Source: a virus. From it: a stretch of 62,786 bases of DNA. The notes beneath the pieces were generated by a model. It ran no database searches. It was given only the letters and a program-made list of their open reading frames with translations, and was not told where the DNA came from. The position numbers and the translations under genes are program-made. Positions 2,006 through 61,142 of this stretch are shown piece by piece (the stretch's first letter is position 1; the number at the start of each line of letters is the position of its first letter). The DNA is taken from positions 1-62,786 of IMG/VR virus record IMGVR_UViG_3300036975_000025, one strand, 5' to 3'.

Positions 2006-2205
2006 TGGTTAAGAAGTGCGATAATTGCCGATATTGGTCAGAAATGATTGCTGAGTCAATAGGATGCGGCCCAATAAAGGCGCTTTGCTTGTCAGACGAA
2101 AGCCCACATAAGGGGAAAATGACTACCTCAAATCAAACATGCGATGCGTGGGGAGAGGCCACCATGGGAACAGTAGATGATTTTGAGATAATGCCAAACT
2201 ATTAA
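2002..2205 (+). CDS. Hypothetical Cys-rich protein (67 aa)
   Basis: ATGATG overlap with the upstream stop; CDNC...C...C...C pattern. Confidence 0.55.
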   Translation: MMVKKCDNCRYWSEMIAESIGCGPIKALCLSDESPHKGKMTTSNQTCDAWGEATMGTVDDFEIMPNY

Positions 2206-2216
2206 AAGGAGGCCCC

Positions 2217-2663
2217 ATGAAATACCTACTCTTAGCATTCCTGCTCCTGCTCCTGCTCCCGGTATCGGGATGGGGTGGAGAAATCCATTACAAAGCATGG
2301 AGAGATGGAGGCCCAGCACCTTGGGAATATGAAACACATTTTATTATCTCTCGTTACATGGAGGACAATGTTGTCTTCAACGTGCAGGGTGCATCTTCGG
2401 GAGAAATCCGAATAGAGCACTGGCTTAAAGGAGCGGAACCTTGCGGGGGAGATTCAAAACCCTACCAAATCCGCACCATCCCTGCCGATGAGTGCAATGA
2501 ATTCCTGCGGGAATATCCTGAGTGGGAGCCGTATGATACCACTTGGTTTCCGTCGCAAGACTTCTTGGATAAGATTCGTTCAGGGGAAACCTTGTTTTAT
2601 ACAGGAGGCCCAATGAAAGGCTGGTTTGGGTTTATACACCTACGCCGCCGCTTGGAGGAATAG
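2217..2663 (+). CDS. Secreted hypothetical protein (148 aa)
   Basis: AAAGGAGG RBS; N-terminal signal peptide MKYLLLAFLLLLLLPVSGWG. Confidence 0.6.
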   Translation: MKYLLLAFLLLLLLPVSGWGGEIHYKAWRDGGPAPWEYETHFIISRYMEDNVVFNVQGASSGEIRIEHWLKGAEPCGGDSKPYQIRTIPADECNEFLREYPEWEPYDTTWFPSQDFLDKIRSGETLFYTGGPMKGWFGFIHLRRRLEE

Positions 2664-2717
2664 TTTCCTGGGCAGGAAAACCGGGGGAAGTAGGAAAACC
2701 GTAGAGGGGAGGGGAAA

Positions 2718-2996
2718 ATGAGAATTAGAGGATATGCGTTTCAGGAAGATGAAAAAGAAAGGCAGAAACAATTCAGAGAACAATATAAAAAGATTAAACA
2801 CCTTGGAAAAGAGATTACTATCCAAAAACAACCGAGATATGGTCATACAGTTTTCAGGGGAAGTCTAGATACCCCAGAAGCTCAAAAATTGAGTTGCCTG
2901 GAAATTGCTTTAATTGCAGATCATGGAAACCTGTGTTTTGGAGGGCAGTGTACAAAAACAGGGAATACTTTCTACGGATTGTATTGGGTAGACTAA
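2718..2996 (+). CDS. Hypothetical protein (92 aa)
   Basis: GGGGAGGGG RBS upstream of the ATG. Confidence 0.5.
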   Translation: MRIRGYAFQEDEKERQKQFREQYKKIKHLGKEITIQKQPRYGHTVFRGSLDTPEAQKLSCLEIALIADHGNLCFGGQCTKTGNTFYGLYWVD

Positions 2997-3036
2997 ATCT
3001 CCTGCATCGCCTTGAACAGCATCCATGGAGGGGAAA

Positions 3037-3306
3037 ATGGCTACAAAAACACTAGACGTTACAATTACCGTGGAAGTGACAATAGACGAAACTAAATTCA
3101 CCTCAAAATTCATGGAAGAATTCAATCGGCATTTTTTTCAAGCAGATATAGATGAACATTTCAAAAACATTGCTCACGGTGAAGCGATGGGCTTGATTTC
3201 CGGTTTTGGTGAAAATAGGTTCCTGGAGGGCTATGGAAAACTTTCAGACATGGGGATTTCAACCGTTGTTGTAGATGAAGAAGTTGAGCCTGCCGTGGGT
3301 TATTAA
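3037..3306 (+). CDS. Hypothetical acidic protein (89 aa)
   Basis: The second in-frame ATG is preferred because GGAGGGG lies just upstream (the track ORF starts at 3025). This is the last gene of the plus arm. Confidence 0.5.
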   Translation: MATKTLDVTITVEVTIDETKFTSKFMEEFNRHFFQADIDEHFKNIAHGEAMGLISGFGENRFLEGYGKLSDMGISTVVVDEEVEPAVGY

Positions 3307-3328
3307 ATGCTTTGAACAGCATCCAACA

Positions 3329-4543
3329 TCACACCCATGCAGTCAAAATCCCCTGCTCGTCTGGTGCCAGAACAGCCGGGTCCGCAAGGTTGAGGGTTGT
3401 GCGGCGGTTAATCCCGTGGACCGGATGGAAGTAAAATATTTCCTGGCTCGGTAAGCTTTGCCGCCGCATTTTGTTCACGCTCAGGTCATCCCCACCCTTC
3501 AGAGAACCGTTCATCAAGATAGAGCCCCCAAGATTTCCGGGCGTGTGGTGATGCCCCACGAGCTCGTAGTGCACCACATGGCCGTACAGGGTGGAAAGCC
3601 TCTGGAACTCCCGTTCACGGCCATAGTAGGGGATTCCTGCCCAGCTCTGCGCCGCATCCCCGTGGGTTAGAGCAAAGAGGTAGTCCCCTTGTTCGACCAG
3701 CATCGTGGGGGACTCCGAAACGTACACCGCGATATTTTTTTGCTGAGCTACAGCGGCCTTCAGGCTTCGATAGAAGATGTAATCAAAATTTGTCCGCTGA
3801 TGATTCGCCCCTTTTCTTCCCGGCCGGCCGTGGTTCCCGGGCACACAGAAGACCTCCACTTGGGGGAAGACTGCGGCCAGGGCCAGGAGCGCGTTGCTCT
3901 CCACCTCTACCGACTTGAAGAGTTGATCGGTAAGCGACAGGTCCAGGTAGAACGGTTGCCCCTCGTAAATTCCTTCCCCTGTGACCTGGTCGCCAAGATG
4001 GTAGAGGACGAGCTTGTGGAGTCCGAGGTTTGCATCCTGCCGTTTAAAAAGAATCACCTTCTCGGTCCACGTCTGCACCCGCTCGACATAGTCCTCTTTG
4101 CTGTACCGGGCCAACCCCTGCACCCAACGCTGGTCCGTGTAGTCACCCACATGGGCGTCGGAACGGATAGAATGGAACTCCAGGTTTTCCTTGGTCTTGG
4201 ATTTGGCAGGAATCTTGACGGGTCGAAATGAGCATTGCTGAATGGCAGCGAGGCAGTTGTCGATGAAGGCTTGGGTGCGGTCCCGTTCCTTTTCAAGCTG
4301 TTTGAGGATGCGCTGATTCTGGTCAACAAGCTGACTTCGAGCGGTATCGGAGAATTCAGGGATGGCTCGGTTTTTCGCTTCAGACCATGAACCAAAATGC
4401 CGTTCAAGCGTGCTTCGGGCGGGACGGCCTTCAGAGGGTAGTCGGTCATAACTGTTGGCGGGAAGGTCCTGGCCGTGTTCCAAAAGAACTTGGCGCAGCG
4501 CTTCTAAGGCCCCCTCTTCCGTCCACTGAACTTTGCCACTCAT
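3329..4543 (-). CDS. Calcineurin-like metallophosphoesterase with N-terminal homing-endonuclease-associated repeat
   Basis: Motifs HLGDQ, VPGNHG, ALTHGD and VGHHHTPG. The N-terminus W..E....L........P....Y.....RP....L...FGSW..AK resembles the HNH-associated repeat. GGAGGG RBS. Confidence 0.75.
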   Translation of the reverse strand: MSGKVQWTEEGALEALRQVLLEHGQDLPANSYDRLPSEGRPARSTLERHFGSWSEAKNRAIPEFSDTARSQLVDQNQRILKQLEKERDRTQAFIDNCLAAIQQCSFRPVKIPAKSKTKENLEFHSIRSDAHVGDYTDQRWVQGLARYSKEDYVERVQTWTEKVILFKRQDANLGLHKLVLYHLGDQVTGEGIYEGQPFYLDLSLTDQLFKSVEVESNALLALAAVFPQVEVFCVPGNHGRPGRKGANHQRTNFDYIFYRSLKAAVAQQKNIAVYVSESPTMLVEQGDYLFALTHGDAAQSWAGIPYYGREREFQRLSTLYGHVVHYELVGHHHTPGNLGGSILMNGSLKGGDDLSVNKMRRQSLPSQEIFYFHPVHGINRRTTLNLADPAVLAPDEQGILTAWV

Positions 4544-9716: not shown

Positions 9717-12700
9717 CTATCGCCACTCCTCGTATATTCTGGTCGCCTCCCCTCTCATCTTCTTGGGGATCTGAGAGAAAGCCGGCCTTAGCCTGTTTCG
9801 AATGGAACTCTTGAGGTCGATCACCTTCCAATACTCCTTGTTCTTGAGGGCCTTACTGTTCCACTCCCGCACCGATTGAAGAACCTTGTCCATCGTCTTC
9901 CGGTCATTCTTTCGAAAGGCGTTCGCGTACTCATCGGCTAAGTGTCGCTTCTTCTCTTGGACACTCTCTTCTGCCTTCCTGACGGCTTGATACGCTGCGT
10001 AGGATTTGCTAGAAGAGATCGGCTGGAATCCAAGGGCTTTCCCCACCATCTCGGGCGCCGTAATCTTCCGAGCTCCCACTTTCCCCGGGTAGTTGATATT
10101 TCTCCCCGAGCGCGTCCTTTGCCCCTCGGTGTAAAGGGTATGCCCTCTCATGGCGTTTCGGACCATCAACGGGGTCACAGGGGACTCAGAGAAAGCCCTG
10201 CCGATCTGCCCACTCTTCAGGCTTTGGATCATGTTCACCGTGTCTTCCATGGCCGAATAGGGCACCCCTAGAAGGTCCTTCCACGATTTCGGCACCTCGA
10301 TCGACAAGGAACCCGTTAAATCCACCCCTGCGGAGGCCCCGGGCAGCCCATATACAATCATGTCCTTCAGCCAGTTGTGCGGCATCAGTTCCCTGGCCTT
10401 GGTCATGGCATCCTCGTCATCGTCCCCCAGCGCCCACAGGAGCGCATTCGAGAAGGCATTGAAGAAGGGGATACCACTTAACCCCGCAATGATGATCAGG
10501 TTGCGAAGAGAGTAGGCCACAGCCCTTTTCCCTGCAGGACCCTGGTTGGAAACCAGATGGGCTACCATGGAAAGGTAGTTGTGCGTGAAAGACCGGAACG
10601 TATAGGCGGATCGGGCGTACTTCTGGAAATCTCCCCCTCGGGCGAATTCAGGAAGATTGGCCTTGCCATAGAGGAAGTGACTGTCTAAAATAATTTGTTT
10701 GGCAAAATCAATGGACCGGTTGTAGTTTCCCTTCGTCCCACCCTGGAAGTCCACCCCATCGTTATAGGCGATCCTGAAGGCTGCAAGCCCCGTAGAAGTC
10801 CGATTGTACTTCTCTGCCAGGCCCATAAAAATACCGGATTTGTCCACGAACTTCTTGAGGTACTTCCCCCAACCCCTTCGAGGAAGATCCCCCTTGAGTT
10901 CCCTGAGGTACTGGTCGATGGTCGCACCCTCTTCGTGCATGTCTCTGAGGGCGGTTTGCTCGATCTCCTTGAGGTGCTTGTAGTGGATCTGTTTTCCCGT
11001 CCACGCTTCCTTTGAGGTTAATGCCCGTCGCGTGTCGGCCATGGCCTTTGCCAGTTTTCTATGAGATCCCTTCGTGTACTGGCTGAGAATAGGGGCCGCA
11101 GCCACCACATTCTGTGTCAGGTTCACAATGGCGCTCTTGGGAACGAACCCGAGGTATTTGACGAAGAACAACCCTCGAATGGAGTCCACCACGCGGTCCG
11201 TCTTGTCCTGGTTCCTCAGAACGTCCCGGACGTACTTCGAGGCGTAGCGGTACTCATTGGGATTCTCTCGAGCGTCGATCTGGTTCAGGATATGCGTATG
11301 CGCCCGAGCCCTCTGAATCTTCGTCTTGAAACCGGCATACCCACTCAGGTAGTCGAAGAGCGTGCCGAAAATATCTTCCGTCTCGAACCCGGCAATGAAC
11401 TGGTCGGATCTTCCAATAGCGTGCTGGCCGAATCCTCGAGACTTCACCACATTGGAAATGGCTTCGGAGAGGGCCTTTTCAATATCCCCCCGGATATTCT
11501 TTGTGGCCTGGGTTCTTGCCTCATCCTCGGTCAACTTGGGGTCGGACTTTCGAATGCGTTCCATCTCCCGCTGGACTTGATCGGCCTTGATATGCTGGCC
11601 GGCCATCCCCGCGATTTGCTGCATGGCATTGATGTCCAGACTGAAAAAGACCTCATCCGGGAGCTGGGTCAACTCTCGGGCACGGCCTACTTCATAATCC
11701 CCCATCTTCCCCGTTAGCCGTCCTTCCCTCACGGCTTTCCTCAGCCATGCCTCAGCCCTTCCCTTGGCCTTATTCTCTTTTGATTTTCCGATCTCCTTAT
11801 ACTTCCAGAAGTGCTCACGGTAGACCACGCTGAAAGGATCGTCCTTCTTCGTGATCTTGATGTAGGCATCCCCGTCTCTCTTGTGGGGGAAGTAGTTGTG
11901 GATCTTTCCCACCTCGGATCGGTACTGCTCGATCAGGTCAGGGTCGAGCTTTTCCACCCGCATGGTCTGGTCAAGGTCGATCAGCTTTCTATCCAGCACC
12001 TCACGGATGTTCAGAAAGGCGTTGATAACCTGCTCGCTCACCCCCTGCTTTTTGAGGAACTGACGGGCTTCCTGGTAGTGTTCGGGCTGAAGGGTTAAGT
12101 CCTCTTCCCCCTTGGAAGGAAACTTGATGGCATCCGTGGGCACGTCCTTCTTGGGGAAACGCTTTCCTTCCCACTTCCAGATGGTGTCGTTGAGTTCCTT
12201 GGACGCCTTCTTATCCTTGGGGATGGAGTCCTGGATCTCCCCTAGTCCTGTCTCGTAATCGTCGTGGAGCTCCCGGCTTCTCGTCTCTCCCGCGTCGATC
12301 TCCACGGCTACATGCTGGCCGATAGTCGGGTATTTCTTGCCTACCCAATAGGGAAGTTGAAACGTCTTTCTCCACGCCCTCATGTCATTGGACCGCTCTA
12401 CGCCTGTACCGAACCGTTCGAGAAGGTTTGAAAGGCTGGAGGCTTCACTGAGAGGTTGCCTGACGGAGCCTATGGGGGAAGAGGCATCGTGAATTTTCTG
12501 AAGGCTCTCTATCCCCTCCACGCCCAAAGACGCCCTAACTGCTTCTGCCGCAGGGCCTTCCTTGGAGGTGAGGGAAGCCATGATGTCAGCCATGGGAGCG
12601 CTGGCCGCAACCTTTCCCAACGCCTCCCTGCTCGCCCCACTCACAATGGACTGAAGGTCCGCATCGGTCAGTCTCAGGGTTACGCCCATGTTGCGGAGAA

Positions 12701-15700
12701 TCTCCCGGATCTTCGCGTACAGCCTCTTCAGAAGGTTCGGGTCTTTCCCGCTCTCCGCGATTCGGGCAAGGTACTCTTCCGCGACAACCCTTTGCTGTCT
12801 ACGGGTGTTTTCCCATTTGTCCCCGAAGTATTCATCTATCAGGTCTTGCAGTCCCTCTTCACCCTTAGTCGCGTATACCTCTTCGAGAAACCCATTCAGC
12901 CGGGAGCCAAAGACTTTCCTGAGACTGTAATGCCCACGGGCTTCGTGAAAGAACGTCACCACCACGTCTTCTGGCCGGGTGAAGGCTTTGGAGAAAATCA
13001 GGACTTCGGGGTGCTTCTTGTCAATCAGCGCACCCTTTAAAGACCCCTCTCGCCATTGGGGAGCGGATTTGTCCAATTGGGCTTGCTGGGCGAGAGTCAG
13101 GGAACCCGCATCCTCTACCACCCTTACTGTCAGGTCAATGCCACGGGACCGGAGTCGCTTCGTGAAGGGGGTAATGGCTTGACGGGCTTGACGACGGGTG
13201 AGGGGGGTGCCTCTGGCTTTCTTGCCTTTCTTTGCAAGCAGTTCTCCCGTCTCCCCCTTCGGCCACTCCTTTACGTTCTCCCCCTCAACAATTTTCTTCT
13301 TTCCCCGGACAACGACCTCGACCTTCCCCTTATTTTTGCCTCGTTTGATTTCGCGGGATTCGGTGAAAGGATACACTTTGTTGTCAATCCAAACCTTGCC
13401 GGAACGGGGCTTGGCTTCTTTTTCGGTCTTCTCCTGTGCCTGTAGGTCGGGGTAGTCTTTGAGGACGGAGGCAGGGACGGATTTGCCTTCCCTAAGAGCA
13501 GACACAACTTCACGCCGATGTGAAATGAGTTCCTGCCCTTTGGGTGTCAAGGCAAAAGCCGTGACCCTCATTGTATTGTCGGTATCAGCCAAGCCAAGGT
13601 CACGCAGTTCTCGCATTTCGCCTTGAGACGGCCTCTTCCGTTTTCCGCGCAAAACATCCGACATCCGTTCTGCAATTTCAACGATGCGCGGTTCATACTC
13701 TTGGGACTCACGCCATTCTTCAGCCGTCATCTCCCACGGTTCCTTCCCCGTGGTTCCCTCTGCTTCAGACTCAACCGTCAAGGATTCCTTGTCAGTTGCC
13801 TCCTTTGGCGCTTTCTCCTCAAACGCCTTCGCCTGCTTCTCCCTCTCCGCTCTCACCTCTTCGAGATCGGTCGTCTCGGTTGCAAATGTCCCGCCGTTCT
13901 CCATGTCCGTCCAGGTATGCGCTCCGTCTTCCCATTGCCCTTCGTGTCGGACGCCCTCGGTCTGAAGCGTTTCAACGGCACTCTTTTCACCCTCTTCCAG
14001 TTTGACTTCCCCGGCCCTCAGAAACCGTGCCGCCTTCCCGGTAATCGCCATCTTGAGCATGTCCATAGGCGTGCGCTTGCCCATCTGGGTGCGCTCATCA
14101 GTCGGTGTAGGCGGTCCCACATACCCGCCCACCAGTTCCGTGGCTTTGTCGAGAAACGTCTGAGGGGTTTCCCCGGCCCGAATCAGCCGTTGCTCTTCCG
14201 GGGTAACGGTAACCCCTTCAATGACTACGGGCGTACCAGGTAATTCCTCCATCTCCTGAATTTTCATGAGGGCATCGGCCATCTTCTGCGCGGCCTTCCA
14301 GGGGGACCGGGCGATCTCCTCTTCCCGTGCCTCCATGCCCCGGCGCTGCTTCTCGATAGCTGCCACCTTTTCAGGGACGCCCTCTTCATGATAGACGGGT
14401 TTCTGCCCGGTAATGCGCTCGGTCCTCTCTCTCCCCTTGGTCTGGAGTTCCTGCCTCAGAGCCTCGTAATCCTCTTCATCCTTTGCCAGTTCCTTTTCAA
14501 ACTCGGCTTCCAGATCCGTTCGGCGTTGCTGGGCCTGCTTCCTTGCCCTCTGTTTGTCGAGCATCACGGAGACGGATTCAATGGGCTCCGCTTCGGGAGC
14601 AGCCGGTAAATCAGAGAGAGACGAGACAACCGGCTTCGGTTCCGTCGCCTCTTCAACGGGTTCTGCGGGTTGCTTGTTCATGGCGTCGATAATGAGCTTA
14701 TTCACGTCATCATCGAGCCCTAATTCCTCGATCCTCGGATCTTCCTTGAGTTCAAGGAGTTCATCGAGGCCGAATGTCCTTCCCTGTTCGTCTGTACCTG
14801 TGTCGTAGGCTCTCTGAATCCCGCTGAGGATTTGCTGTTTGGCTTGGTCGGCGCTTGTACCTTTAGGCGTTGCAATTCCACTAACCATTCCACCACCAAG
14901 ACCACCAACGGCTCCTGCCGCACCGCTTTCGATTAGACGATCAAGGTTCTCCTGCGTAAATTTTTCAAAAGTGGGATCATTGACAGCAATGTTCGCCATA
15001 GAAAGGAGTTCTTGCGTAGATTCCTGTAATGCCTCCCCAGGGGCTTGCTTTGCCGCCTCTTTAACCATCCGAGCGACAAGAGAAACGCTTTTAGGTGTCC
15101 CGTTTCCTGCTAAAATCCTATCAAGGGTTTCTCTAAACGCCTTCCCAGCCTTGCCTCCAAGGGTTTTATCAATCAACCGAGCATTACCACCTGCAAGTTC
15201 TACAAAAGCGGCAAGAGTGCCTGTAGCCAGGGCAGACCAAGGATTATCAATTCCCCGCTCCATCGCTTCGCCCCAATTCCCACCTGCTTCAATAGGGGCT
15301 ACCGCACTCACAATGCCAGCCTTGGCTCCTGCCTGCTTCATGGCTTGCTTGGCAATGGCGCTCTTCCCAATTCTTTCTATCTGTTCTCGCGCAGCCCTCT
15401 CAGCCGCTTCGCGGGTCATGCCTTTCTTAACAAAACGACCCACCGCCTCTTTAATCATTTTTCGAATGGCACGCTTGCCGAAGAAACCTGCAACGGCCCC
15501 TCCTGCCGTACCAGGCCCAGGCGCAGCAGACCCTAATGTTGCCCCTAAAGCCGCACCCACAGCGGCTTCACCCATAGACGGGACAAGTTCCCCAGCCGTT
15601 TCACCAGCCCATCCTAATGCGCTTGTTAGCCCTTTGATTTCCTTAAATTCTGTTTCTTTCGGATACTGCGCCGCTTCCTCAATGTTCCTCTGGTATCCCT

Positions 15701-15956
15701 CAAATCCCCATTCTTCCAGGGGTTCGATTCTGAGAGCAGACCCTACCAATCCCGCCGCGCCATAACCCGTAGCCTGAAGGTTCTCCCACCCACGGTGAAT
15801 GCCACGCTCGAAGCCCGACATATCTTCCTCGGGTTCTCCGAGATCGGCCAGGCTGGAAACCACCCTCTTGCCACCCGTGTCCAAGTCGGCAAGGGACGAA
15901 ACAACCGGCATCTCGTCTTCGTAAAGATCATTCAGTGATTGGACGATTCGGGGCAT
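9717..15956 (-). CDS. Giant (2,079 aa) virion-associated polyvalent / ejection or tape-measure-like protein
   Basis: Single uninterrupted ORF, TAATG-coupled to the upstream gene. Gly/Ala-rich hydrophobic N-terminal third, a charged coiled-coil middle, and YFPHKRDGDAYI resembling the PLxRFG-domain core of phage/ICE polyvalent proteins. Confidence 0.7.
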   Translation of the reverse strand: MPRIVQSLNDLYEDEMPVVSSLADLDTGGKRVVSSLADLGEPEEDMSGFERGIHRGWENLQATGYGAAGLVGSALRIEPLEEWGFEGYQRNIEEAAQYPKETEFKEIKGLTSALGWAGETAGELVPSMGEAAVGAALGATLGSAAPGPGTAGGAVAGFFGKRAIRKMIKEAVGRFVKKGMTREAAERAAREQIERIGKSAIAKQAMKQAGAKAGIVSAVAPIEAGGNWGEAMERGIDNPWSALATGTLAAFVELAGGNARLIDKTLGGKAGKAFRETLDRILAGNGTPKSVSLVARMVKEAAKQAPGEALQESTQELLSMANIAVNDPTFEKFTQENLDRLIESGAAGAVGGLGGGMVSGIATPKGTSADQAKQQILSGIQRAYDTGTDEQGRTFGLDELLELKEDPRIEELGLDDDVNKLIIDAMNKQPAEPVEEATEPKPVVSSLSDLPAAPEAEPIESVSVMLDKQRARKQAQQRRTDLEAEFEKELAKDEEDYEALRQELQTKGRERTERITGQKPVYHEEGVPEKVAAIEKQRRGMEAREEEIARSPWKAAQKMADALMKIQEMEELPGTPVVIEGVTVTPEEQRLIRAGETPQTFLDKATELVGGYVGPPTPTDERTQMGKRTPMDMLKMAITGKAARFLRAGEVKLEEGEKSAVETLQTEGVRHEGQWEDGAHTWTDMENGGTFATETTDLEEVRAEREKQAKAFEEKAPKEATDKESLTVESEAEGTTGKEPWEMTAEEWRESQEYEPRIVEIAERMSDVLRGKRKRPSQGEMRELRDLGLADTDNTMRVTAFALTPKGQELISHRREVVSALREGKSVPASVLKDYPDLQAQEKTEKEAKPRSGKVWIDNKVYPFTESREIKRGKNKGKVEVVVRGKKKIVEGENVKEWPKGETGELLAKKGKKARGTPLTRRQARQAITPFTKRLRSRGIDLTVRVVEDAGSLTLAQQAQLDKSAPQWREGSLKGALIDKKHPEVLIFSKAFTRPEDVVVTFFHEARGHYSLRKVFGSRLNGFLEEVYATKGEEGLQDLIDEYFGDKWENTRRQQRVVAEEYLARIAESGKDPNLLKRLYAKIREILRNMGVTLRLTDADLQSIVSGASREALGKVAASAPMADIMASLTSKEGPAAEAVRASLGVEGIESLQKIHDASSPIGSVRQPLSEASSLSNLLERFGTGVERSNDMRAWRKTFQLPYWVGKKYPTIGQHVAVEIDAGETRSRELHDDYETGLGEIQDSIPKDKKASKELNDTIWKWEGKRFPKKDVPTDAIKFPSKGEEDLTLQPEHYQEARQFLKKQGVSEQVINAFLNIREVLDRKLIDLDQTMRVEKLDPDLIEQYRSEVGKIHNYFPHKRDGDAYIKITKKDDPFSVVYREHFWKYKEIGKSKENKAKGRAEAWLRKAVREGRLTGKMGDYEVGRARELTQLPDEVFFSLDINAMQQIAGMAGQHIKADQVQREMERIRKSDPKLTEDEARTQATKNIRGDIEKALSEAISNVVKSRGFGQHAIGRSDQFIAGFETEDIFGTLFDYLSGYAGFKTKIQRARAHTHILNQIDARENPNEYRYASKYVRDVLRNQDKTDRVVDSIRGLFFVKYLGFVPKSAIVNLTQNVVAAAPILSQYTKGSHRKLAKAMADTRRALTSKEAWTGKQIHYKHLKEIEQTALRDMHEEGATIDQYLRELKGDLPRRGWGKYLKKFVDKSGIFMGLAEKYNRTSTGLAAFRIAYNDGVDFQGGTKGNYNRSIDFAKQIILDSHFLYGKANLPEFARGGDFQKYARSAYTFRSFTHNYLSMVAHLVSNQGPAGKRAVAYSLRNLIIIAGLSGIPFFNAFSNALLWALGDDDEDAMTKARELMPHNWLKDMIVYGLPGASAGVDLTGSLSIEVPKSWKDLLGVPYSAMEDTVNMIQSLKSGQIGRAFSESPVTPLMVRNAMRGHTLYTEGQRTRSGRNINYPGKVGARKITAPEMVGKALGFQPISSSKSYAAYQAVRKAEESVQEKKRHLADEYANAFRKNDRKTMDKVLQSVREWNSKALKNKEYWKVIDLKSSIRNRLRPAFSQIPKKMRGEATRIYEEWR

Positions 15957-25891: not shown

Positions 25892-26619
25892 TTAAGTGGT
25901 CACGCCGGTCTTGGCCTTGTGGCCCTTCCGGTTGTTCACGACCAGGTTCCCGTCAAACAGGATCTTCATGGTCCGGTCGTTCGGAGAGCCGGGAATGACC
26001 ATCCACTTCGTTCGCATGAAGTAGCCCTTCTGGTGGACGGCGAAACCGACATGGTTGGTGTTGAGGGCCAGCAACGTACCGCTGGTGGTTCCGGTCGTCG
26101 GGGCATAGTCGTCGGGGAAGTAATCCGCCCCCTCGAACTCAACGCCCGTGAACCCCACCTTGGCGGTCCTCTCGGACTTCACAAACCGTTGCTGGGTCTG
26201 AAGAATGGAAAGGATCTCGTTGAACAGCCACTCAGGGCTTACCAGGAGATCCGGCTTACCCTTGGCCCCGTCCCTGATCTTCGCGTCGGTCCGAATGTCC
26301 CGAAGCATGTCCAGGGTGATGGAGCCAGCGCCCGTGTCCCGCTTTCCTTCCCACGGGTAGGTGCCGTCCGCAGCCATCAGGTCGCCTTCCTGAATCCCCC
26401 CGTACGCCGTGGTCGTGGTCTCATGGCAGCACGCCATAAGTCCCGTCAGACGCTCGGACAGGCCGGTAGGCTCATCGTAGATGGAGTTGGCAAGTACCTT
26501 GGTGAGGGATTTCTGGGCCCCGCCGACACGCTGCTCGACCAGTTGAACCTCTGCATAGTCGCCAGCGTTCTTCAGGGTGTCGATCCGGTAGATGGTCGCG
26601 TTGCCGTAAGCGTGCTTCC
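25892..26619 (-). CDS. Major capsid protein, exon 2
   Basis: The frame is open for 79 codons upstream of the first ATG (26437) with no ATG/GTG/TTG. It is in phase with exon 1. The joined product is 330 aa and lies after the scaffold gene. Confidence 0.7.
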
Positions 26620-27600
26620 CAGTGCTGTTACCGCAGGGCCATTTAAGCCCTGCTTCTGCATGTCTCCATGCAGCTCAGACTATATCATCACCCTGTTCAC
26701 CTACAGAGTGCCGGGCGCTCGTGGGCAGGATTATTGTTGGGACTCACCCGCCTAGTCGTTGAACCTTCCTCAGAACCTTCGCCCTCTGAGGCTTGGCTGC
26801 TGATTGCCCTCGCCTTTACGTTAGGGGATTCCAGCAATTCACCCGGTTTTTCAGAGTAGTGAATGAATATATGGCAAGACTTGCAAACGGTTATACCGTC
26901 TTCAAGCCGGTGAAGGGCGACAACCATTTCAGCGATCTTTATCTTGTCCTCTGAATTTTCGATAGAAAGCTCAGGGTGGTCAGAAATAACCGCATCCATG
27001 ATGTCTTTGAGTGGCCTCAAATGGTGAACATGGTTATTGCGATAGTGTCCGCAAAGGCGGCAAGTGAAATTATCACGTTCCATTACCGGGAATGTCCAAA
27101 CAGGATAAAGCGCCCTTCGAATCATGTCCGTAAGGGTTGAAATGCCTCCCTGCCAATTGTGATGATTCTCCCCGGACCTATGCTTATTGGAGCAGGTAAT
27201 GCAGCGTTCAGCGTGATAAAACTTATTCAACTTGCATCCGCAATCAATACAATAAGCATCTGGAACATATTTTCGATAAATTCCAAGCCGTTGAGCCTGT
27301 GTTTTAATTGCAGGCTCAGTTCTGTCTAAATGTTCAACCATTTTTGCAAGTGGATATCCTTTGTCAGGATAATGCCGGGCAAGATACCTGTTCTCTGCTT
27401 TGGTCCAAGTAGTATGTGTACCGCAAAGGCCCAGTTGAGTCGCCTTATGCCTGATAGAGTTAACCGACCTCTCCAACTTTTCAGCAATGTCCATAGATAG
27501 ACCACGCCTATAATTGGCTATTAAAAAGTCGATTTCTTCTTTTTTCCACCTGCTAGCCATAGCCATATCTCACTATTCTGGAGCTAATTCATGCTACTTA
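26620..27600 (-). mobile_element. Group I intron (981 nt) with HNH homing-endonuclease ORF, inside the major capsid gene
   Basis: On the minus strand, P-like GAAUUGCUGGAAUCCCC (26824..26840), Q-like GCAAUCAGCAGCC (26795..26807), R-like GGUUCAACGACUAGG (26751..26765) and S-like GAUAUAGUC (26678..26686) occur in the canonical order. P4 (UUGCUG/CAGCAG) and P7 (GACUA/UAGUC) pairings are possible. 7-bp hairpins follow at 26630..26671. Confidence 0.8.
26697..27566 (-). CDS. Intron-encoded HNH homing endonuclease (289 aa)
   Basis: Two SANT/Myb-like repeats (WKKEEIDFL..., WTKAENRYL...), a Cys4 zinc module, and an HNH core CRLCGH..NNHVHHLRPL...CKSCHIFIH. The low-complexity C-terminus overlaps the intron core. 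Confidence 0.85.
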   Translation of the reverse strand: MAMASRWKKEEIDFLIANYRRGLSMDIAEKLERSVNSIRHKATQLGLCGTHTTWTKAENRYLARHYPDKGYPLAKMVEHLDRTEPAIKTQAQRLGIYRKYVPDAYCIDCGCKLNKFYHAERCITCSNKHRSGENHHNWQGGISTLTDMIRRALYPVWTFPVMERDNFTCRLCGHYRNNHVHHLRPLKDIMDAVISDHPELSIENSEDKIKIAEMVVALHRLEDGITVCKSCHIFIHYSEKPGELLESPNVKARAISSQASEGEGSEEGSTTRRVSPNNNPAHERPALCR

Positions 27601-27865
27601 ACTCGAAGTACGCAGCGTTCACGCTCTCACGGTCATCGCTCGAAAGCACATCCCCTCGGGAGTAGAACCCCGCTTCCTGGCCGTCATACTCCAGGGGCAC
27701 GCGGATCTTCTCACCGCCCTCGGGCCTCATCCAAATGCCCTTGTGCTGCTTGAGGAGATGGTTCAGGAGAAAACTGGTGTCGAAGTAGATATCGACTGCC
27801 TTGCCGTCCTCCAGCGCGAAATAATCGTTGGTGACGGACTCAAGTTCCTCGAATGTCAGAGCCAT
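27601..27865 (-). CDS. Major capsid protein, exon 1
   Basis: GGAGG RBS. The 93-aa track ORF ends in TAG 16 nt past the proposed 5' splice site (after U 27601). Sequence ...RGDVLSSDDRESVNAAYFE. Confidence 0.7.
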
Positions 27866-30457: not shown

Positions 30458-32770
30458 TTACTCCTGATTGTTTGACTTCATGCCCCGTTCTCGATAGGGC
30501 CCTTGCCCCCGCTTCTCCGCAGACTTCTGAGCCATGATGTCACTGACGATCTTGGCCCGGTTATCCCGCTCCTGCTCCCGCTCGTAGTTCATCCGGTGGA
30601 TCGACTCGGCCCGTTCGATCTTGAGCTTGCTCCAGTCCAGATCAACCCCTTGTGATTTGACCTGCTGCTCTACCCTTTCACTCCGGACCTTCTCGTAAGC
30701 CAAATCGGTTTCAGCCTCGACCTTCTGCGCCTCGGCGTCCTCCTTGGCAATCTCAGCCTGCTTCAGTTGCTGCTCAAGGACCTTCATCGGGTCTTCCTGG
30801 GGTTCCCCTCCCATAATCTGCTGTAGCATGGTCTGGAAGTCGGGCAATTCCCCCTTCTCCATGGCTTTCTTGAAGTCCTTGGGTTCCATGGTCTGGAGTT
30901 CCTGGAGGAACCCTACCAACTGTTCGGGCATCCCGAGCTCGGCGAGTCTCTGGAGCATATCGGCCAACGGTCCCATGTTCATCTTGTTGACCACCTGCCT
31001 CCAATTCGGCCAATTCAAGGCTTTCAGGAGTTCTTCAAGGGGAAGGGCATTCTTCTCATAGAGCGCCAAAGCCTCTTCCCGTTGCTGGACCCTGGAGGTG
31101 GGCATCATGGACCCGGAGACCACCGTCATTTTCGCTGGAAATATGAGGTCGGCACCAACGATCTGCTTGGAAACCTGCTCCCCACTCTCATCGGTGTAGG
31201 TGATATGGCGGGGTTCGGTGTACCAATTTTGCACCATTGAGACGTACATCCGGCCCCGTTCCCTGACGAGACGGGAATAATTCTCGAATTTTCCACGAAG
31301 CCGATCCGTCACCCGCTCGAGCAGGGCGGCAATAGCCTTGTACGCAATAACTTCCCGGCCCTCGGTCTGGGCCTGCTGGAGGGAGAATGTACCGGATACG
31401 AGGAAAAAGAGGTCCTTGGTGATTTCCAAGGCTTTGTACATATCAATAGGAGCTTGCGGGGGTTGAAGGTACTCGATCCCTTTGGAGGTCAGGTAGGAAG
31501 AGGGTCGAATGATGCCCGGGTAGTTGGTGAGTTCGGCGTTATCCACGCCCGAATCCATGGGATTCTTGATTTTGAGCCTTGCAGCCCGGTCCTTGAAGAG
31601 ATTGATCTGACTGAGGGTCTTGTTGATCTCGACCTGAAGCCCTTCCAACTGCTCGAAATCGCTCATGCCCCATGGGTGGGAGTCGTTTGTCTCTGAAACC
31701 GTGACGGTGAAGGGAAATTTATCGTACAGGTAGGTCCACTTGGCTTTTTCGGGGGGTAGGTTGGGGTTGATGTTCGGATTTCCACGGTCCTCAAGCACCA
31801 ACTCCCCGCCGTTACAAACGCGAATGTACCGGATGCCGCCCGGGTACTTCAGTTGCTGCTCACCGGTTTCAATCTTTTCGATTTGACCTGTACCACGGCC
31901 CTGGTCGTCCGCAACCTCCCGTTCTTCGACCATGGGGACCATGGTATCGTCCCGCACCCAGCATTCCACGGCTAGGGTCATTTTATCCAAGTGGCTGGCT
32001 GTACCTGCGGTGTTCTCCCCCAGCATCGCCTTGACCACGCTACCAATGCTGGTGAACCACCGTTGCATCCTTCCTTGACCGCCGGCCTGAATCTCCTTTC
32101 GGCTATCACCTATCTTGGAGAGCCATTCCGAGTCGGGCTTGATCTGCTTGGCTAAATTGGGGTACTCCTTCCGGAGCTTCCTTGTGGGAACGGGCTCGAA
32201 ATGAAAGTTGGCATCGGCCTTCTGGTTATCCTCACAGTCCAGCGGCCACATGCCGAAGTAGAAGGGGTGGATTCTTTCGGCTACCGCCTCCCCAATTCCG
32301 AATTCGGCATCCGGGTCGAAGCGGACCTTATCCACCACACACCCGGCGATCTCCCCGGTATCCACTTCCCGGCTGTAAATCTTGTGCTGCTCCTGAGATA
32401 ACCACCAATGCTGAGTGGTATGAACGAGATCCATGTACTTGTCTTCGTCAATCTCAGACCCACCGATCTTCTCCACGTCGAAAGTGGGGCTATTGGCTGT
32501 CAGGAGGTTCCGGGACTCAATTCTATGGGTGTGGAGGAGATTGGCCGAGCGGAGAGATGCCTTTTTCGAAGAACTCTTCCAGTGCTTATTCTGGGCGAGA
32601 CGCTCATGGTAGTGCCACTTCCGGGGAAGACCGAGAGACTCCTTGTCCTGAAGAATAGCGTCAAGGAGTTGGAACACCGTTCGCCCGACCTTCTTGTTTC
32701 CCTCGGGAGGAACGAGCTCTACCGACTCGTCCTCGTCTCGGATGGTATCGACTGTCTGTTCTTCAGGCAT
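30458..32770 (-). CDS. Portal protein (770 aa)
   Basis: Size and position downstream of terL. The N-terminal pattern ...NKHW...ANLLHTHRIESRNLLTANSPTFDV is typical of portal families. Acidic coiled C-terminus. Confidence 0.75.
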   Translation of the reverse strand: MPEEQTVDTIRDEDESVELVPPEGNKKVGRTVFQLLDAILQDKESLGLPRKWHYHERLAQNKHWKSSSKKASLRSANLLHTHRIESRNLLTANSPTFDVEKIGGSEIDEDKYMDLVHTTQHWWLSQEQHKIYSREVDTGEIAGCVVDKVRFDPDAEFGIGEAVAERIHPFYFGMWPLDCEDNQKADANFHFEPVPTRKLRKEYPNLAKQIKPDSEWLSKIGDSRKEIQAGGQGRMQRWFTSIGSVVKAMLGENTAGTASHLDKMTLAVECWVRDDTMVPMVEEREVADDQGRGTGQIEKIETGEQQLKYPGGIRYIRVCNGGELVLEDRGNPNINPNLPPEKAKWTYLYDKFPFTVTVSETNDSHPWGMSDFEQLEGLQVEINKTLSQINLFKDRAARLKIKNPMDSGVDNAELTNYPGIIRPSSYLTSKGIEYLQPPQAPIDMYKALEITKDLFFLVSGTFSLQQAQTEGREVIAYKAIAALLERVTDRLRGKFENYSRLVRERGRMYVSMVQNWYTEPRHITYTDESGEQVSKQIVGADLIFPAKMTVVSGSMMPTSRVQQREEALALYEKNALPLEELLKALNWPNWRQVVNKMNMGPLADMLQRLAELGMPEQLVGFLQELQTMEPKDFKKAMEKGELPDFQTMLQQIMGGEPQEDPMKVLEQQLKQAEIAKEDAEAQKVEAETDLAYEKVRSERVEQQVKSQGVDLDWSKLKIERAESIHRMNYEREQERDNRAKIVSDIMAQKSAEKRGQGPYRERGMKSNNQE

Positions 32771-34466: not shown

Positions 34467-34708
34467 GTCCTCACCGTGGGAACCCGGGAATCATCCTCAC
34501 CGTCCCAGATTTCATCTTCGATGTACCCGCCCTCGGGATCGTTATATGGACCGCTCATCTCCGGAGCGCGGGACTGCGTGACAGTCGTAACTGATTTATC
34601 CCGCCTCGCCATAAACCCCATGACAAACCCGAACAGGACCAGAACAAAAAAGGCGACCAGAAGGGCCGCCGCTGCGATTGCCGCTTGCGCCATGGATATC
34701 TCGATCAT
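34463..34708 (-). CDS. Small membrane protein (81 aa)
   Basis: TM segment AAIAAAALLVAFFVLVLFGFVMGFMA; 4-nt overlaps on both sides. Confidence 0.55.
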   Translation of the reverse strand: MIEISMAQAAIAAAALLVAFFVLVLFGFVMGFMARRDKSVTTVTQSRAPEMSGPYNDPEGGYIEDEIWDGEDDSRVPTVRT

Positions 34709-59866: not shown

Positions 59867-60973
59867 ATGAAGGGGGGAATCTACGAGAACAAGGGAAAGT
59901 ATGGGGCAAGGTGGATCGTCCGGTATCCAGGGGGAATCTGGCGGCGCTTTAAGGTCTATGAGGATGCAGAATCCTTCCTCATCGCCTTGAACTACCGGGA
60001 CCAAGTAGAGGGTGGAGTGGACCCAAGGGACTACCGGAAGGACGTGCCACTCGGGTTCATGACGTTGGCAGACCAATGGCTTGATGTGAAAAGATCGGAA
60101 GGCCTGCGGTCTCTGAAAAATCCTATCAACCACATCCAACACGCCGCGCGGTTTTTGGGAAACCGGAACGTCAAGGACATTAGGTACGGTGAACTGGAAG
60201 ACCTCTTGAAGCACTTGAGGCAGACCACGGACCTCTCGGGGAAGTCCCTGCACGACATTTTCACCACGCTCCACACGTTTTTTAAGTGGGTATCCAGGCG
60301 GGAAAAGAAGTTTGAAATGCCCGACTTCCCCACCATTAAGTACGAGTTGAAATACAGGCAGACCGTGGACTTTGAAACACGGGCCAAAATCCTCGAGGAA
60401 GTGCGCCGGCTCTCATGGAAGGAAAATCCCAAAATCTATCTAGGCATCCTGTGGCTCTCTACCTATCCCATCGTGCGACCCATCGAGCTCTTGCAGGTCT
60501 TGGAACGGGACATCGACCTTTCCAATGGGACCATCACCATTACGCGAAGCAAGGTCAGGGGACAGTACAAACGAATTTACCTTATCGAGGAAGACGTGGA
60601 CACCATCCGGACCCTCCCCCGCGGTATGCCGTTGATGCCGTTCTTCCGGCATGAGAAGAAGAAAGGACAACCCGCGGGGAAGCAATTTGGCAAAGACTAT
60701 TGGTATTCATGGTGGAGGAAGGCTTGCAGGAACCTCAGCATCAAGGGCGTGAGCCTCTATCCCGGCACCAGGCATTCGACAGTCACGGGGCTGGGGGATG
60801 AACTGAGCCCTGAAGAGATCATGGCGGGAGCATCGGACCATCGGACCAACAAAGCCTTTGCCCGGTACTTCCACTTGAAGGCAGAGCGCAGGAGGGCTAT
60901 TTCGAGGCACATTCGGCTCAAGCAAACCTGCACATCATCTGCAACGGCAAATGGAGCAGGTGAAGAGGATTAA
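59867..60973 (+). CDS. int: Tyrosine integrase
   Basis: AAAAGGAG RBS before MKGGIYENKGKYGARW. Core-binding and catalytic domains are present, with R (RPIELL), PGTRHSTVT, and ASDHRTNKAFARYFH (H..Y). Confidence 0.9.
   Translation: MKGGIYENKGKYGARWIVRYPGGIWRRFKVYEDAESFLIALNYRDQVEGGVDPRDYRKDVPLGFMTLADQWLDVKRSEGLRSLKNPINHIQHAARFLGNRNVKDIRYGELEDLLKHLRQTTDLSGKSLHDIFTTLHTFFKWVSRREKKFEMPDFPTIKYELKYRQTVDFETRAKILEEVRRLSWKENPKIYLGILWLSTYPIVRPIELLQVLERDIDLSNGTITITRSKVRGQYKRIYLIEEDVDTIRTLPRGMPLMPFFRHEKKKGQPAGKQFGKDYWYSWWRKACRNLSIKGVSLYPGTRHSTVTGLGDELSPEEIMAGASDHRTNKAFARYFHLKAERRRAISRHIRLKQTCTSSATANGAGEED
60927..60943 (+). repeat. Arm-type direct repeat CCTGCACATCATCTGCA (left of the core)
   Basis: 16/17 identical to 61057..61073; together they flank the tRNA-like core. 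Confidence 0.55.
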
Positions 60974-60996
60974 GGATGCGGAAATTGCTGAAAATC

Positions 60997-61028
60997 TGGT
61001 GCCGAAGGGGAGACTCGAACTCCCCGAC
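60997..61028 (-). other. attP core candidate: 3' end of a tRNA (T arm + acceptor + CCA), tRNA-Leu-like
   Basis: The minus strand reads GUCGGGGAGUUCGAGUCUCCCCUUCGGCACCA. No matching 5' acceptor half (GCCGAAG) lies within 100 nt, so this is a fragment and not a gene. Confidence 0.7.
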
Positions 61029-61056
61029 TAGCCTGATTTTCCTGCAAAAAATCCAT

Positions 61057-61073
61057 CCTGCACACCATCTGCA
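61057..61073 (+). repeat. Arm-type direct repeat CCTGCACACCATCTGCA (right of the core)
   Basis: Partner of 60927..60943. Confidence 0.55.
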
Positions 61074-61142
61074 CATCCTTCTCAATTTTTCAGCTTGGAG
61101 ACAGTCTGGAGGCAACCGAGGCTGTCAAGGAAAGGAGAGATC

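Follow-up and report, generated by a model that had tools for sequence, protein, structure and literature searches.

A predicted mobile IA-type group I intron with an HNH homing endonuclease gene in the major capsid gene of an uncultivated tailed phage

Capsid genes of phages are known to harbour group I introns. In mycobacteriophage LittleE (Cluster J), splicing of the capsid-gene intron was demonstrated by reverse transcription PCR and N-terminal protein sequencing (PMC3706429), and the report of that work cites a capsid-gene intron in the lactococcal phage Tuc2009 (PMC3706429). Likewise, many group I introns have been described in essential genes of uncultivated phages, the Jug phages (PMC12880540), and in many phages the neighbourhood of the capsid gene is rich in endonuclease genes (PMC10448857). 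The present analysis concerns a stretch of viral DNA 62,786 nucleotides (nt) in length (IMG/VR record IMGVR_UViG_3300036975_000025, positions 1 to 62,786; "the window" hereafter denotes this whole stretch), in which the coding sequence for the major capsid protein of an uncultivated tailed phage is, very probably, split by a mobile group I intron of IA type that itself encodes an HNH homing endonuclease. As such, the element behaves as a member of the known class of mobile introns.

Comparison with LittleE reveals both similarities and differences. In each case the phage is tailed and temperate (probably so for the window), its major capsid gene contains an endonuclease-bearing intron, U is the last base of exon 1 and G that of the intron, and close relatives lacking the intron exist. 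However, splicing of the LittleE intron has been shown experimentally, whereas that of the window intron is predicted; the LittleE endonuclease is LAGLIDADG-like and encoded on the opposite strand, while that of the window is an HNH-type protein encoded on the same strand within loop L2; and the two capsid proteins belong to different families.

Phage introns of subgroup IA that carry HNH nicking endonucleases include those of SPO1 (I-HmuI), Bastille (I-BasI) and Twort (I-TwoI). These introns share with that of the window an extra helix between P7 and P3' and an HNH-type endonuclease, the predicted fold of the window protein being nearest to that of a nicking HNH enzyme, SciA of phage T5. Introns of Bastille-like Bacillus phages and Staphylococcus phages share 80-85% DNA identity with the window core over about 90 nt. 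The SPO1, Bastille and Twort introns nevertheless reside in DNA polymerase or nucleotide-metabolism genes, while that of the window resides in a capsid gene; in addition, the window endonuclease differs from theirs in having tandem three-helix helix-turn-helix (HTH) repeats as its DNA-binding module, and its open reading frame (ORF), located in L2, continues across P3 to P8. The td intron of T4, with its endonuclease I-TevI, is also a mobile group I intron with a looped-out endonuclease gene whose translation starts in or near a structured element, and its homing target, like that of the window, is a conserved stretch of an essential gene. I-TevI differs in being a GIY-YIG enzyme, encoded in the P6 loop by an ORF that does not overlap the catalytic core.

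The best DNA match to the intron, 75% over 200 nt, is an interruption in the thyX gene of an Alteromonas phage, AD45-P1, which has a related core and an HNH ORF overlapping that core; there the host gene encodes a thymidylate synthase, and the intron is unannotated in the record. In that record (vB_AmaP_AD45-P1, NC_021532 66479-68744; locus L002), the ThyX-type gene is entered as two coding sequences parted by HNH and GIY-YIG genes.

The interrupted capsid gene and its ribozyme

The initial annotation of the window had placed the capsid coding information in two pieces, a 93-amino-acid (aa) ORF with a good ribosome-binding site and a frame without a start codon, with an HNH endonuclease ORF in another frame between them, and each of these elements was recovered in the present analysis. 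Specifically, the 93-aa ORF of exon 1 (27584..27865, minus strand) is preceded by GGAGG 9 nt upstream of its ATG, the intervening endonuclease ORF encodes 289 aa, and the ORF list shows the frame of exon 2 to be open from 26674 to 26438, a stretch of 79 codons without ATG, GTG or TTG, the first ATG-started ORF beginning at 26437. Joining 27865-27601 to 26619-25892 on the minus strand yields a protein of 330 aa and removes, between U27601 and exon 2, an interval of 981 nt (3 x 327), such that the splice positions U27601 and G26620 and both lengths stand as first proposed. The gene is thus divided as follows.

27601..27865, minus strand: capsid exon 1, 88 codons and base 1 of the W89 codon (read-out, ORF list, alignment)
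26620..27600, minus strand: group I intron of 981 nt, first base U27600, last base omega-G26620 (Rfam, junction, helices)
25892..26619, minus strand: capsid exon 2, bases 2 and 3 of the W89 codon followed by K90-T330 and the stop codon (ORF list, alignment)

At the predicted exon joint, ...UUCGAGU is followed by GGAAGCAC..., the sequence across the joint reading ...TACTTCGAGT then GGAAGCACGC..., and codon 89 (UGG, W89), which the intron divides as T/GG (here and below, a slash within a codon marks the insertion point), is restored. The resulting product has 468 database homologues, the best of which are uninterrupted proteins of 324-326 aa with 64-72% identity. Colinearity with intron-less capsid proteins, a check put forward in the initial annotation, was found: in an alignment with 19 uninterrupted homologues there is no gap near the junction, ...NAAYF[ED]-W-KHAYGNAT... 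is colinear throughout, including across FE-W-KHAYG, and W89, H91, N95, A96 and T97 are invariant among the 20 aligned capsid sequences. At the nucleotide level, the single alternative cut that would leave the protein identical, GAG/U...C/UGG, breaks both the U(-1) and the omega-G rules.

The interrupted gene is predicted to encode a phage major capsid (major head) protein of the Mx8/Brucella-Tb-like family PHROG 9953. Residues 3-320 of the spliced product match the 'major head protein' profile of that family (E = 2.6e-29), tblastn returned 23-28% identity to the annotated major head proteins of Myxococcus phages Mx8 and Mx9, Stenotrophomonas phage BUCT555 and Brucella phages, and further head-morphogenesis genes are located upstream (portal, 30458-32770; large terminase, 34705-36309). 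None of the cultured phage relatives exceeded 28% capsid identity in tblastn, and a DNA search of a phage collection with the window returned matches at the intron core only and no close phage relative. Similarly, comparison of the capsid profile with PDB sequences gave no match, and a Pfam scan of the capsid and endonuclease proteins gave nothing at E <= 0.1.

The nature of the insert is indicated by a match of 26656-26907 (minus strand) to the Rfam Intron_gpI model (RF00028), whose bit score of 93.8 exceeds the gathering cutoff of 50 (E = 7.2e-23) and which is the sole Rfam match above gathering in the whole window; a search with this model had also been suggested at the outset. Twelve helices within the window were checked base by base for complementarity, and are listed below in transcript order, all on the minus strand, together with the joining and terminal segments.

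27581..27604: P1, exon GAGU with intron UAA (27604-27598) pairing with the guide UUAGCUC (27587-27581); 7/7 pairs, 10-nt loop
27569..27580: P2 5' strand, CAGAAUAGUGAG; adjoins P1 on one side and the endonuclease start codons on the other
26852..26863: P2 3' strand, UUCACUACUCUG; 11/12 pairs with 27580-27569, closing L2, which holds the endonuclease gene
26851-26847: J2/3, AAAAA; follows the P2 3' strand
26633..26846: catalytic core, P3 to P9.1
26846-40 and 26717-11: P3, CCGGGUG with CGCCCGG; 7/7
26836-31 and 26803-26798: P4, UGCUGG with UCAGCA; 6/6
26826-24 and 26809-07: P5, CCC with GGG; 3/3
26797-95 and 26765-63: P6, GCC with GGU; 3/3
26791-85 and 26774-68: P6a, CCUCAGA with UCUGAGG; 7/7
26759 plus 26757-53 and 26682-77: P7, A.GACUA with UAGUCU; C26758 bulged, next pair G26757-C26678
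26752-47 and 26729-24: P7.1, GGCGGG with CCUGCC; 6/6, between P7 and P3'
26710-03 and 26696-89: P8, CACUCUGU with ACAGGGUG; 8/8
26673-67 and 26662-56: P9, CUGCAUG with CAUGCAG; 7/7
26653-47 and 26639-33: P9.1, GCAGGGC with GCCCUGC; 7/7
26620..26632: 3' tail, GGUAACAGCACUG, ending in omega-G26620; its GRUAAC motif is kept across the family

Much of this structure had been anticipated. The classical conserved elements P (26824..26840), Q (26795..26807), R (26751..26765) and S (26678..26686) are all present, as are the two hairpins now designated P9 (CUGCAUG-GAGA-CAUGCAG, 26673-26656) and P9.1 (GCAGGGC-UUAAAUG-GCCCUGC, 26653-26633). The proposed P1 pairing of GAGU with GCUC, in which the G of GCUC is intron position 17, was likewise found and extends to 7 base pairs (GAGUUAA with UUAGCUC), U27601, the last base of exon 1, forming the U.G wobble with G27584. 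The initial P4 shares five of its six pairs with the P4 supported by covariation (UGCUGG with UCAGCA), one pair being different, and the long-range P2 that encloses the endonuclease gene had been absent from that account. As to the remaining features, the position of the G26757-C26678 pair is the usual place of the guanosine-binding pair in group I introns, and a helix between P7 and P3' is a hallmark of subgroup IA. Because just such an extra helix, P7.1, sits between P7 and P3', the window intron is assigned to group I, IA type, with a P7.1 insertion.

A different hairpin, at 26903-26880, was aligned by Rfam as 'P2'. This appears to be a forced fit within the EDGITVC codons of the HNH motif, and it is not kept in relatives; it was dropped as P2 because it lies inside HNH codons and is unconserved, while the long-range P2 displays compensatory changes.

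Support for the structure comes from related introns. A scan of viral contigs with the capsid protein yielded 50 loci, 10 of which contain Rfam-positive introns inside the capsid gene; endonuclease-based scans added two further viral loci and 64 metagenome loci (the query for the latter being a four-sequence endonuclease alignment), and a search with a hidden Markov model of the core detected introns in the majority of these added loci. From these data, 27 non-redundant aligned cores were compared. RNAalifold recovered P3, P4, P5, P6/P6a, P7.1, P8, P9 and P9.1, and compensatory changes were seen at 31 of its 46 pairs. When the full structure, including the P7 pseudoknot, was imposed on the same cores, 96.7% of cells paired, as opposed to 29-41% with the partners slid, and at 34 of the 54 core pairs both partners vary. 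The covariation score of 0.509 compares with 0.08 or less in controls, none of 500 shuffles attaining the observed values. Even the outer P7 pair across the bulge varies, being AU in 15 introns and GC in 12.

P1 and P2 fall outside the core alignment and were compared by inspection, which suggests that both covary with the local exon. Specifically, the guide tracks the exon, GAGU being matched with GCUC in the window and in L016, L038, L039, L197, L198 and L199, GACU with GGUC in L046, GGGU with GCCC in L045 and L049, GGCU with GGCC in L044 and L053, and GUCU with GGAC in L056. P2 is similarly compensated in relatives, in which CAGAAUG pairs with CAUUCUG, CUGGUUG with CAACCAG and CAGUGUG with CACGCUG, further compensated pairs being CCAAAGGU with ACCUUUGG, CAAGGAUGAUGU with ACAUCACCUUG and CAGGAUAAUGG with CCAUUAUACUG.

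The endonuclease, the W89 site and the genome context

The endonuclease gene begins immediately downstream of the 5' strand of P2 and is organized, on the minus strand, as follows.

26697..27566: HNH ORF, 289 aa from AUG 27566 (287 aa from AUG 27560), in a frame other than that of the exons
about 27542-27288: two HTH repeats
about 27263-26853: zinc ribbon and HNH
26846-26700: tail of 49 aa with predicted disorder, its codons spanning P3 to P8
26699-26697: endonuclease stop codon UGA, in the P8 loop

AUG 27566 lies 2 nt, and AUG 27560 (from which the public assembly calls the gene) 8 nt, after the P2 5' strand; since the ORF starts directly after this strand, the folded part of the endonuclease is encoded in loop L2. 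The predicted protein is placed in the HNH class by its matches to PHROG profiles, its conserved motif and its modelled fold. The profiles identify an HNH endonuclease with an N-terminal DNA-binding region (families 8446, 1891, 8048 and 119), and the motif CxxC...HH...CxxCH (C167, C170, H179, H180, C226, C229 and H230) is invariant in 17 homologues, which also possess a second Cys4 cluster. An AlphaFold2 model with a mean predicted local distance difference test (pLDDT) value of 76 contains three-helix repeats at residues 7-42 and 54-91 followed by a zinc ribbon, an HNH domain at residues 143-236 (pLDDT 85-96) and a tail at residues 239-287 (pLDDT about 30). In Foldseek searches the HNH domain matched the T5 SciA nicking endonuclease (9qgx/9qgv; TM 0.61-0.63, root-mean-square deviation 2.2-2.6, probability 1.0) as well as McrA (6ghc), and the N-terminus resembled bipartite HTH DNA-binding domains; a search of the endonuclease profile against PDB sequences gave weak matches only.

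Extension of the ORF into the catalytic core is a shared property of these introns. All 10 HNH ORFs of the viral-contig introns likewise extend into the core, and the endonuclease ORFs of the window, L016, L039 and L044-L049 enter it by about 150-200 nt and stop in P8 or at J8/7; the conserved GAUGAUAUAGUCUGA supplies a stop codon in each of three frames. Most relatives read the tail in a frame other than the window's, yielding a recurrent ...NQQPSxSNV..VDRKVQRLTGEDTQTNKPDTS... sequence; conservation of the core-encoded tail may reflect constraint on the protein or on the RNA. A scan for promoters and terminators around the intron found nothing that sets an endonuclease promoter apart from chance. 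One homologous endonuclease, P0125, is filed at NCBI under a metagenome-assembled genome named 'Nanoarchaeota archaeon', the source of which is probably a mis-binned phage contig.

The distribution of introns at the W89 codon bears on mobility. The four closest endonucleases in a collection of 5.8 billion proteins (50-69% identity) are all found at the W89 site, between capsid residues 88 and 90, and so is the more distant endonuclease of L046/L133. This site is filled in the window and in five other contigs (L142, L197, L198, L199 and L046/L133), the capsid exons of which are 48-63% identical to the window's, and is empty in most homologues. Each of 39 distinct alleles without the intron has TTYGANTGGAARCAYGCNTAYGG there; the intron-less allele sequence at W89 is TTYGANTGGAARCAYGC, an example of a synthetic intron-less site being GCGTACTTCGAGTGGAAGCACGCTTACGGCAAC. 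As read from these alleles, such presence/absence polymorphism is the pattern expected of homing.

Elsewhere in the window, a tyrosine-integrase-like gene (PHROG 1) occupies 59798-60973 on the plus strand, and a tRNA-Cys gene lies 25 nt further, on the opposite strand (60998-61074). This region (59798-61074) may contain an attachment site and suggests a temperate phage. In addition, an ORF of 2079 aa (9717-15956, minus strand) has an N-terminal match to virion-structural proteins, and its C-terminal 500 residues resemble a DarB-like family of antirestriction proteins (PHROG 10089, E = 4e-26).

Alternative explanations and the proposed mechanism

Several observations weigh against the interpretation of the insert as a functional mobile intron. 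Inspection for a P10 helix with the 3' exon revealed at most two pairs (GGA with UUA), none of them convincing, and Pfam HNH models gave no match to the endonuclease ORF at E <= 0.1. Translation of approximately 200 nt of the core as part of the endonuclease ORF could compete with folding of the ribozyme. Moreover, the window core is the most divergent of the family, sharing 52-70% identity with the other cores, and for this reason a loss of ribozyme activity in the window is conceivable. Extended to the whole locus, this last point becomes the proposal that the ribozyme is real but decayed and the capsid gene a pseudogene in a defective element, to which the integrase gene and adjacent tRNA-Cys lend some plausibility, as they suggest a temperate or integrated lifestyle in which decay is possible. 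However, no helix is disrupted; the bulged P7 nucleotide, the GC pair at the guanosine-binding position, the U.G wobble and omega-G are all preserved; the exons are free of stop codons and keep all family-invariant residues, and the endonuclease ORF is uninterrupted and retains every invariant residue. Given this degree of preservation, decay is considered very unlikely.

It could also be supposed that a free-standing endonuclease gene splits the capsid gene into two pieces that are translated separately and assembled after translation, with no RNA splicing involved, and public gene calls do present the region as three ORFs of 93, 287 and 161 aa. This arrangement is difficult to reconcile with an exon 2 that lacks any start codon for 79 codons before its first ATG, with the complete, covariation-supported ribozyme that flanks the endonuclease ORF, or with the division of the W89 codon itself, and is judged to be highly improbable. 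Least probable of all, to the point of being barely credible, is that the junctions lie elsewhere or that the element is an intein or a group II intron, nothing having been found in favour of these ideas. The frame of exon 1 reaches a stop five codons into the insert (LSSMN, then stop) and the ORF of the insert is in another frame, which excludes an in-frame intein; group II intron families all stayed below the Rfam gathering score; and other junctions would either add residues to or remove them from a column-perfect alignment, or break the U and omega-G rules.

If the element is indeed a mobile IA-type intron, its activity can be envisaged as follows. The late capsid transcript would fold into the ribozyme such that P1 presents the U.G wobble at U27601, and exogenous guanosine bound in the P7 pocket would attack after U27601. 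Omega-G26620 would then take the place of the guanosine, allowing the 3'-OH of exon 1 to attack after G26620, and ligation of the exons would restore UGG (W89) and, with it, the coding sequence of a 330-aa capsid protein. The endonuclease expressed from the gene in L2 would recognise as its target the intron-less allele TTYGANTGGAARCAYGC of a relative infecting the same cell and would cut or nick it, and repair off the intron-containing copy would spread the intron. By analogy, it may be speculated that formation of P2 hides the ribosome-binding region of the endonuclease gene; a ribosome-binding region hidden in this way has been described for I-TevI of T4.

Related introns at several capsid sites

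Six insertion sites have been mapped exactly, all within the first 93 codons of the capsid family (280 nt), and on a slight balance of the evidence this family may serve one ribozyme/HNH lineage as a hotspot with several sites of insertion. The mapped sites are as follows.

After codon 2, GCU/: L044
Inside codon 10, U/CG: L016
After codon 10, UCU/ or GCU/: L056, L053
Inside codon 67, U/UY: L038, L039, L045, L049
Inside codon 89, U/GG: window, L046
After codon 92, GCU/: L047, L048, L049

At every mapped site, U occupies exon position -1, the intron ends in G, and the intron has its own matching guide sequence. The endonucleases group by insertion site, and their HTH repeats vary in number from one to three. 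GAGU precedes three of the six sites (codons 9-10, 66-67 and 88-89), and the guide GCUC is common to all three; because target and guide are the same, movement of the ribozyme among these sites would be eased, whether by reverse splicing or by endonuclease retargeting.

In two loci, a single capsid gene contains two introns, with an exon of 66-77 nt between them: L049, at codons 67 and 92 (introns at 2092-3070 and 3148-4000; also L136), and L197, at codons 67 and 89 (introns at 802-1949 and 2014-3145). The two L049 cores are 98.6% identical from P3 to P7.1 and 72% identical elsewhere, while their HNH proteins share 50% identity; near-identity of this part of the core alongside endonucleases so different suggests gene conversion between the tandem introns. 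A further rearrangement is apparent at the codon-67 site, where the L038 intron (3051-3998) carries a 225-aa LAGLIDADG-type ORF after the P7 5' strand, in the P7.1 region, rather than an HNH ORF in L2, and L039 carries the HNH version at the same site. Compared at the sequence level, the pair represents an apparent endonuclease swap within one intron lineage.

More distant cores interrupt other families of major head protein (PHROG 267 and 371) among L095, L128, L149-L169, L152/L153, L184, L187, L188 and L193, and distant cores of this locus set are also found in nrdD (anaerobic ribonucleotide reductase) on human-gut contigs, in an nrdA-like gene and in dnaB-like helicases. A full-text literature search returned no report of one intron lineage at six capsid-gene sites, its incomplete coverage making this weak evidence of novelty.

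The findings have practical consequences for annotation. In the public assembly of the window (L200, Logan SRR12150545 contig 16421, 62689 nt), the capsid region is called as three genes, of 93, 287 and 161 aa. Because gene calling divides the capsid gene into three unrelated ORFs in this manner, capsid-based phage classification and protein clustering will miss or truncate it, and the same problem affects 10 of the 50 related viral-contig loci, or roughly one in five.

With regard to the biology of these elements, what is known of the mechanism of group I introns is unchanged; rather, one more highly expressed structural gene is added to the targets of mobile group I introns. The six sites in 280 nt, with their site-adapted guides and endonucleases, a LAGLIDADG replacement and apparent gene conversion, constitute a compact comparative system for the study of retargeting. 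If the single-lineage hotspot is real and previously unreported, it would offer a natural series for joint retargeting of intron and endonuclease within one gene, as well as a case in which about 50 endonuclease codons are always encoded by the catalytic core.

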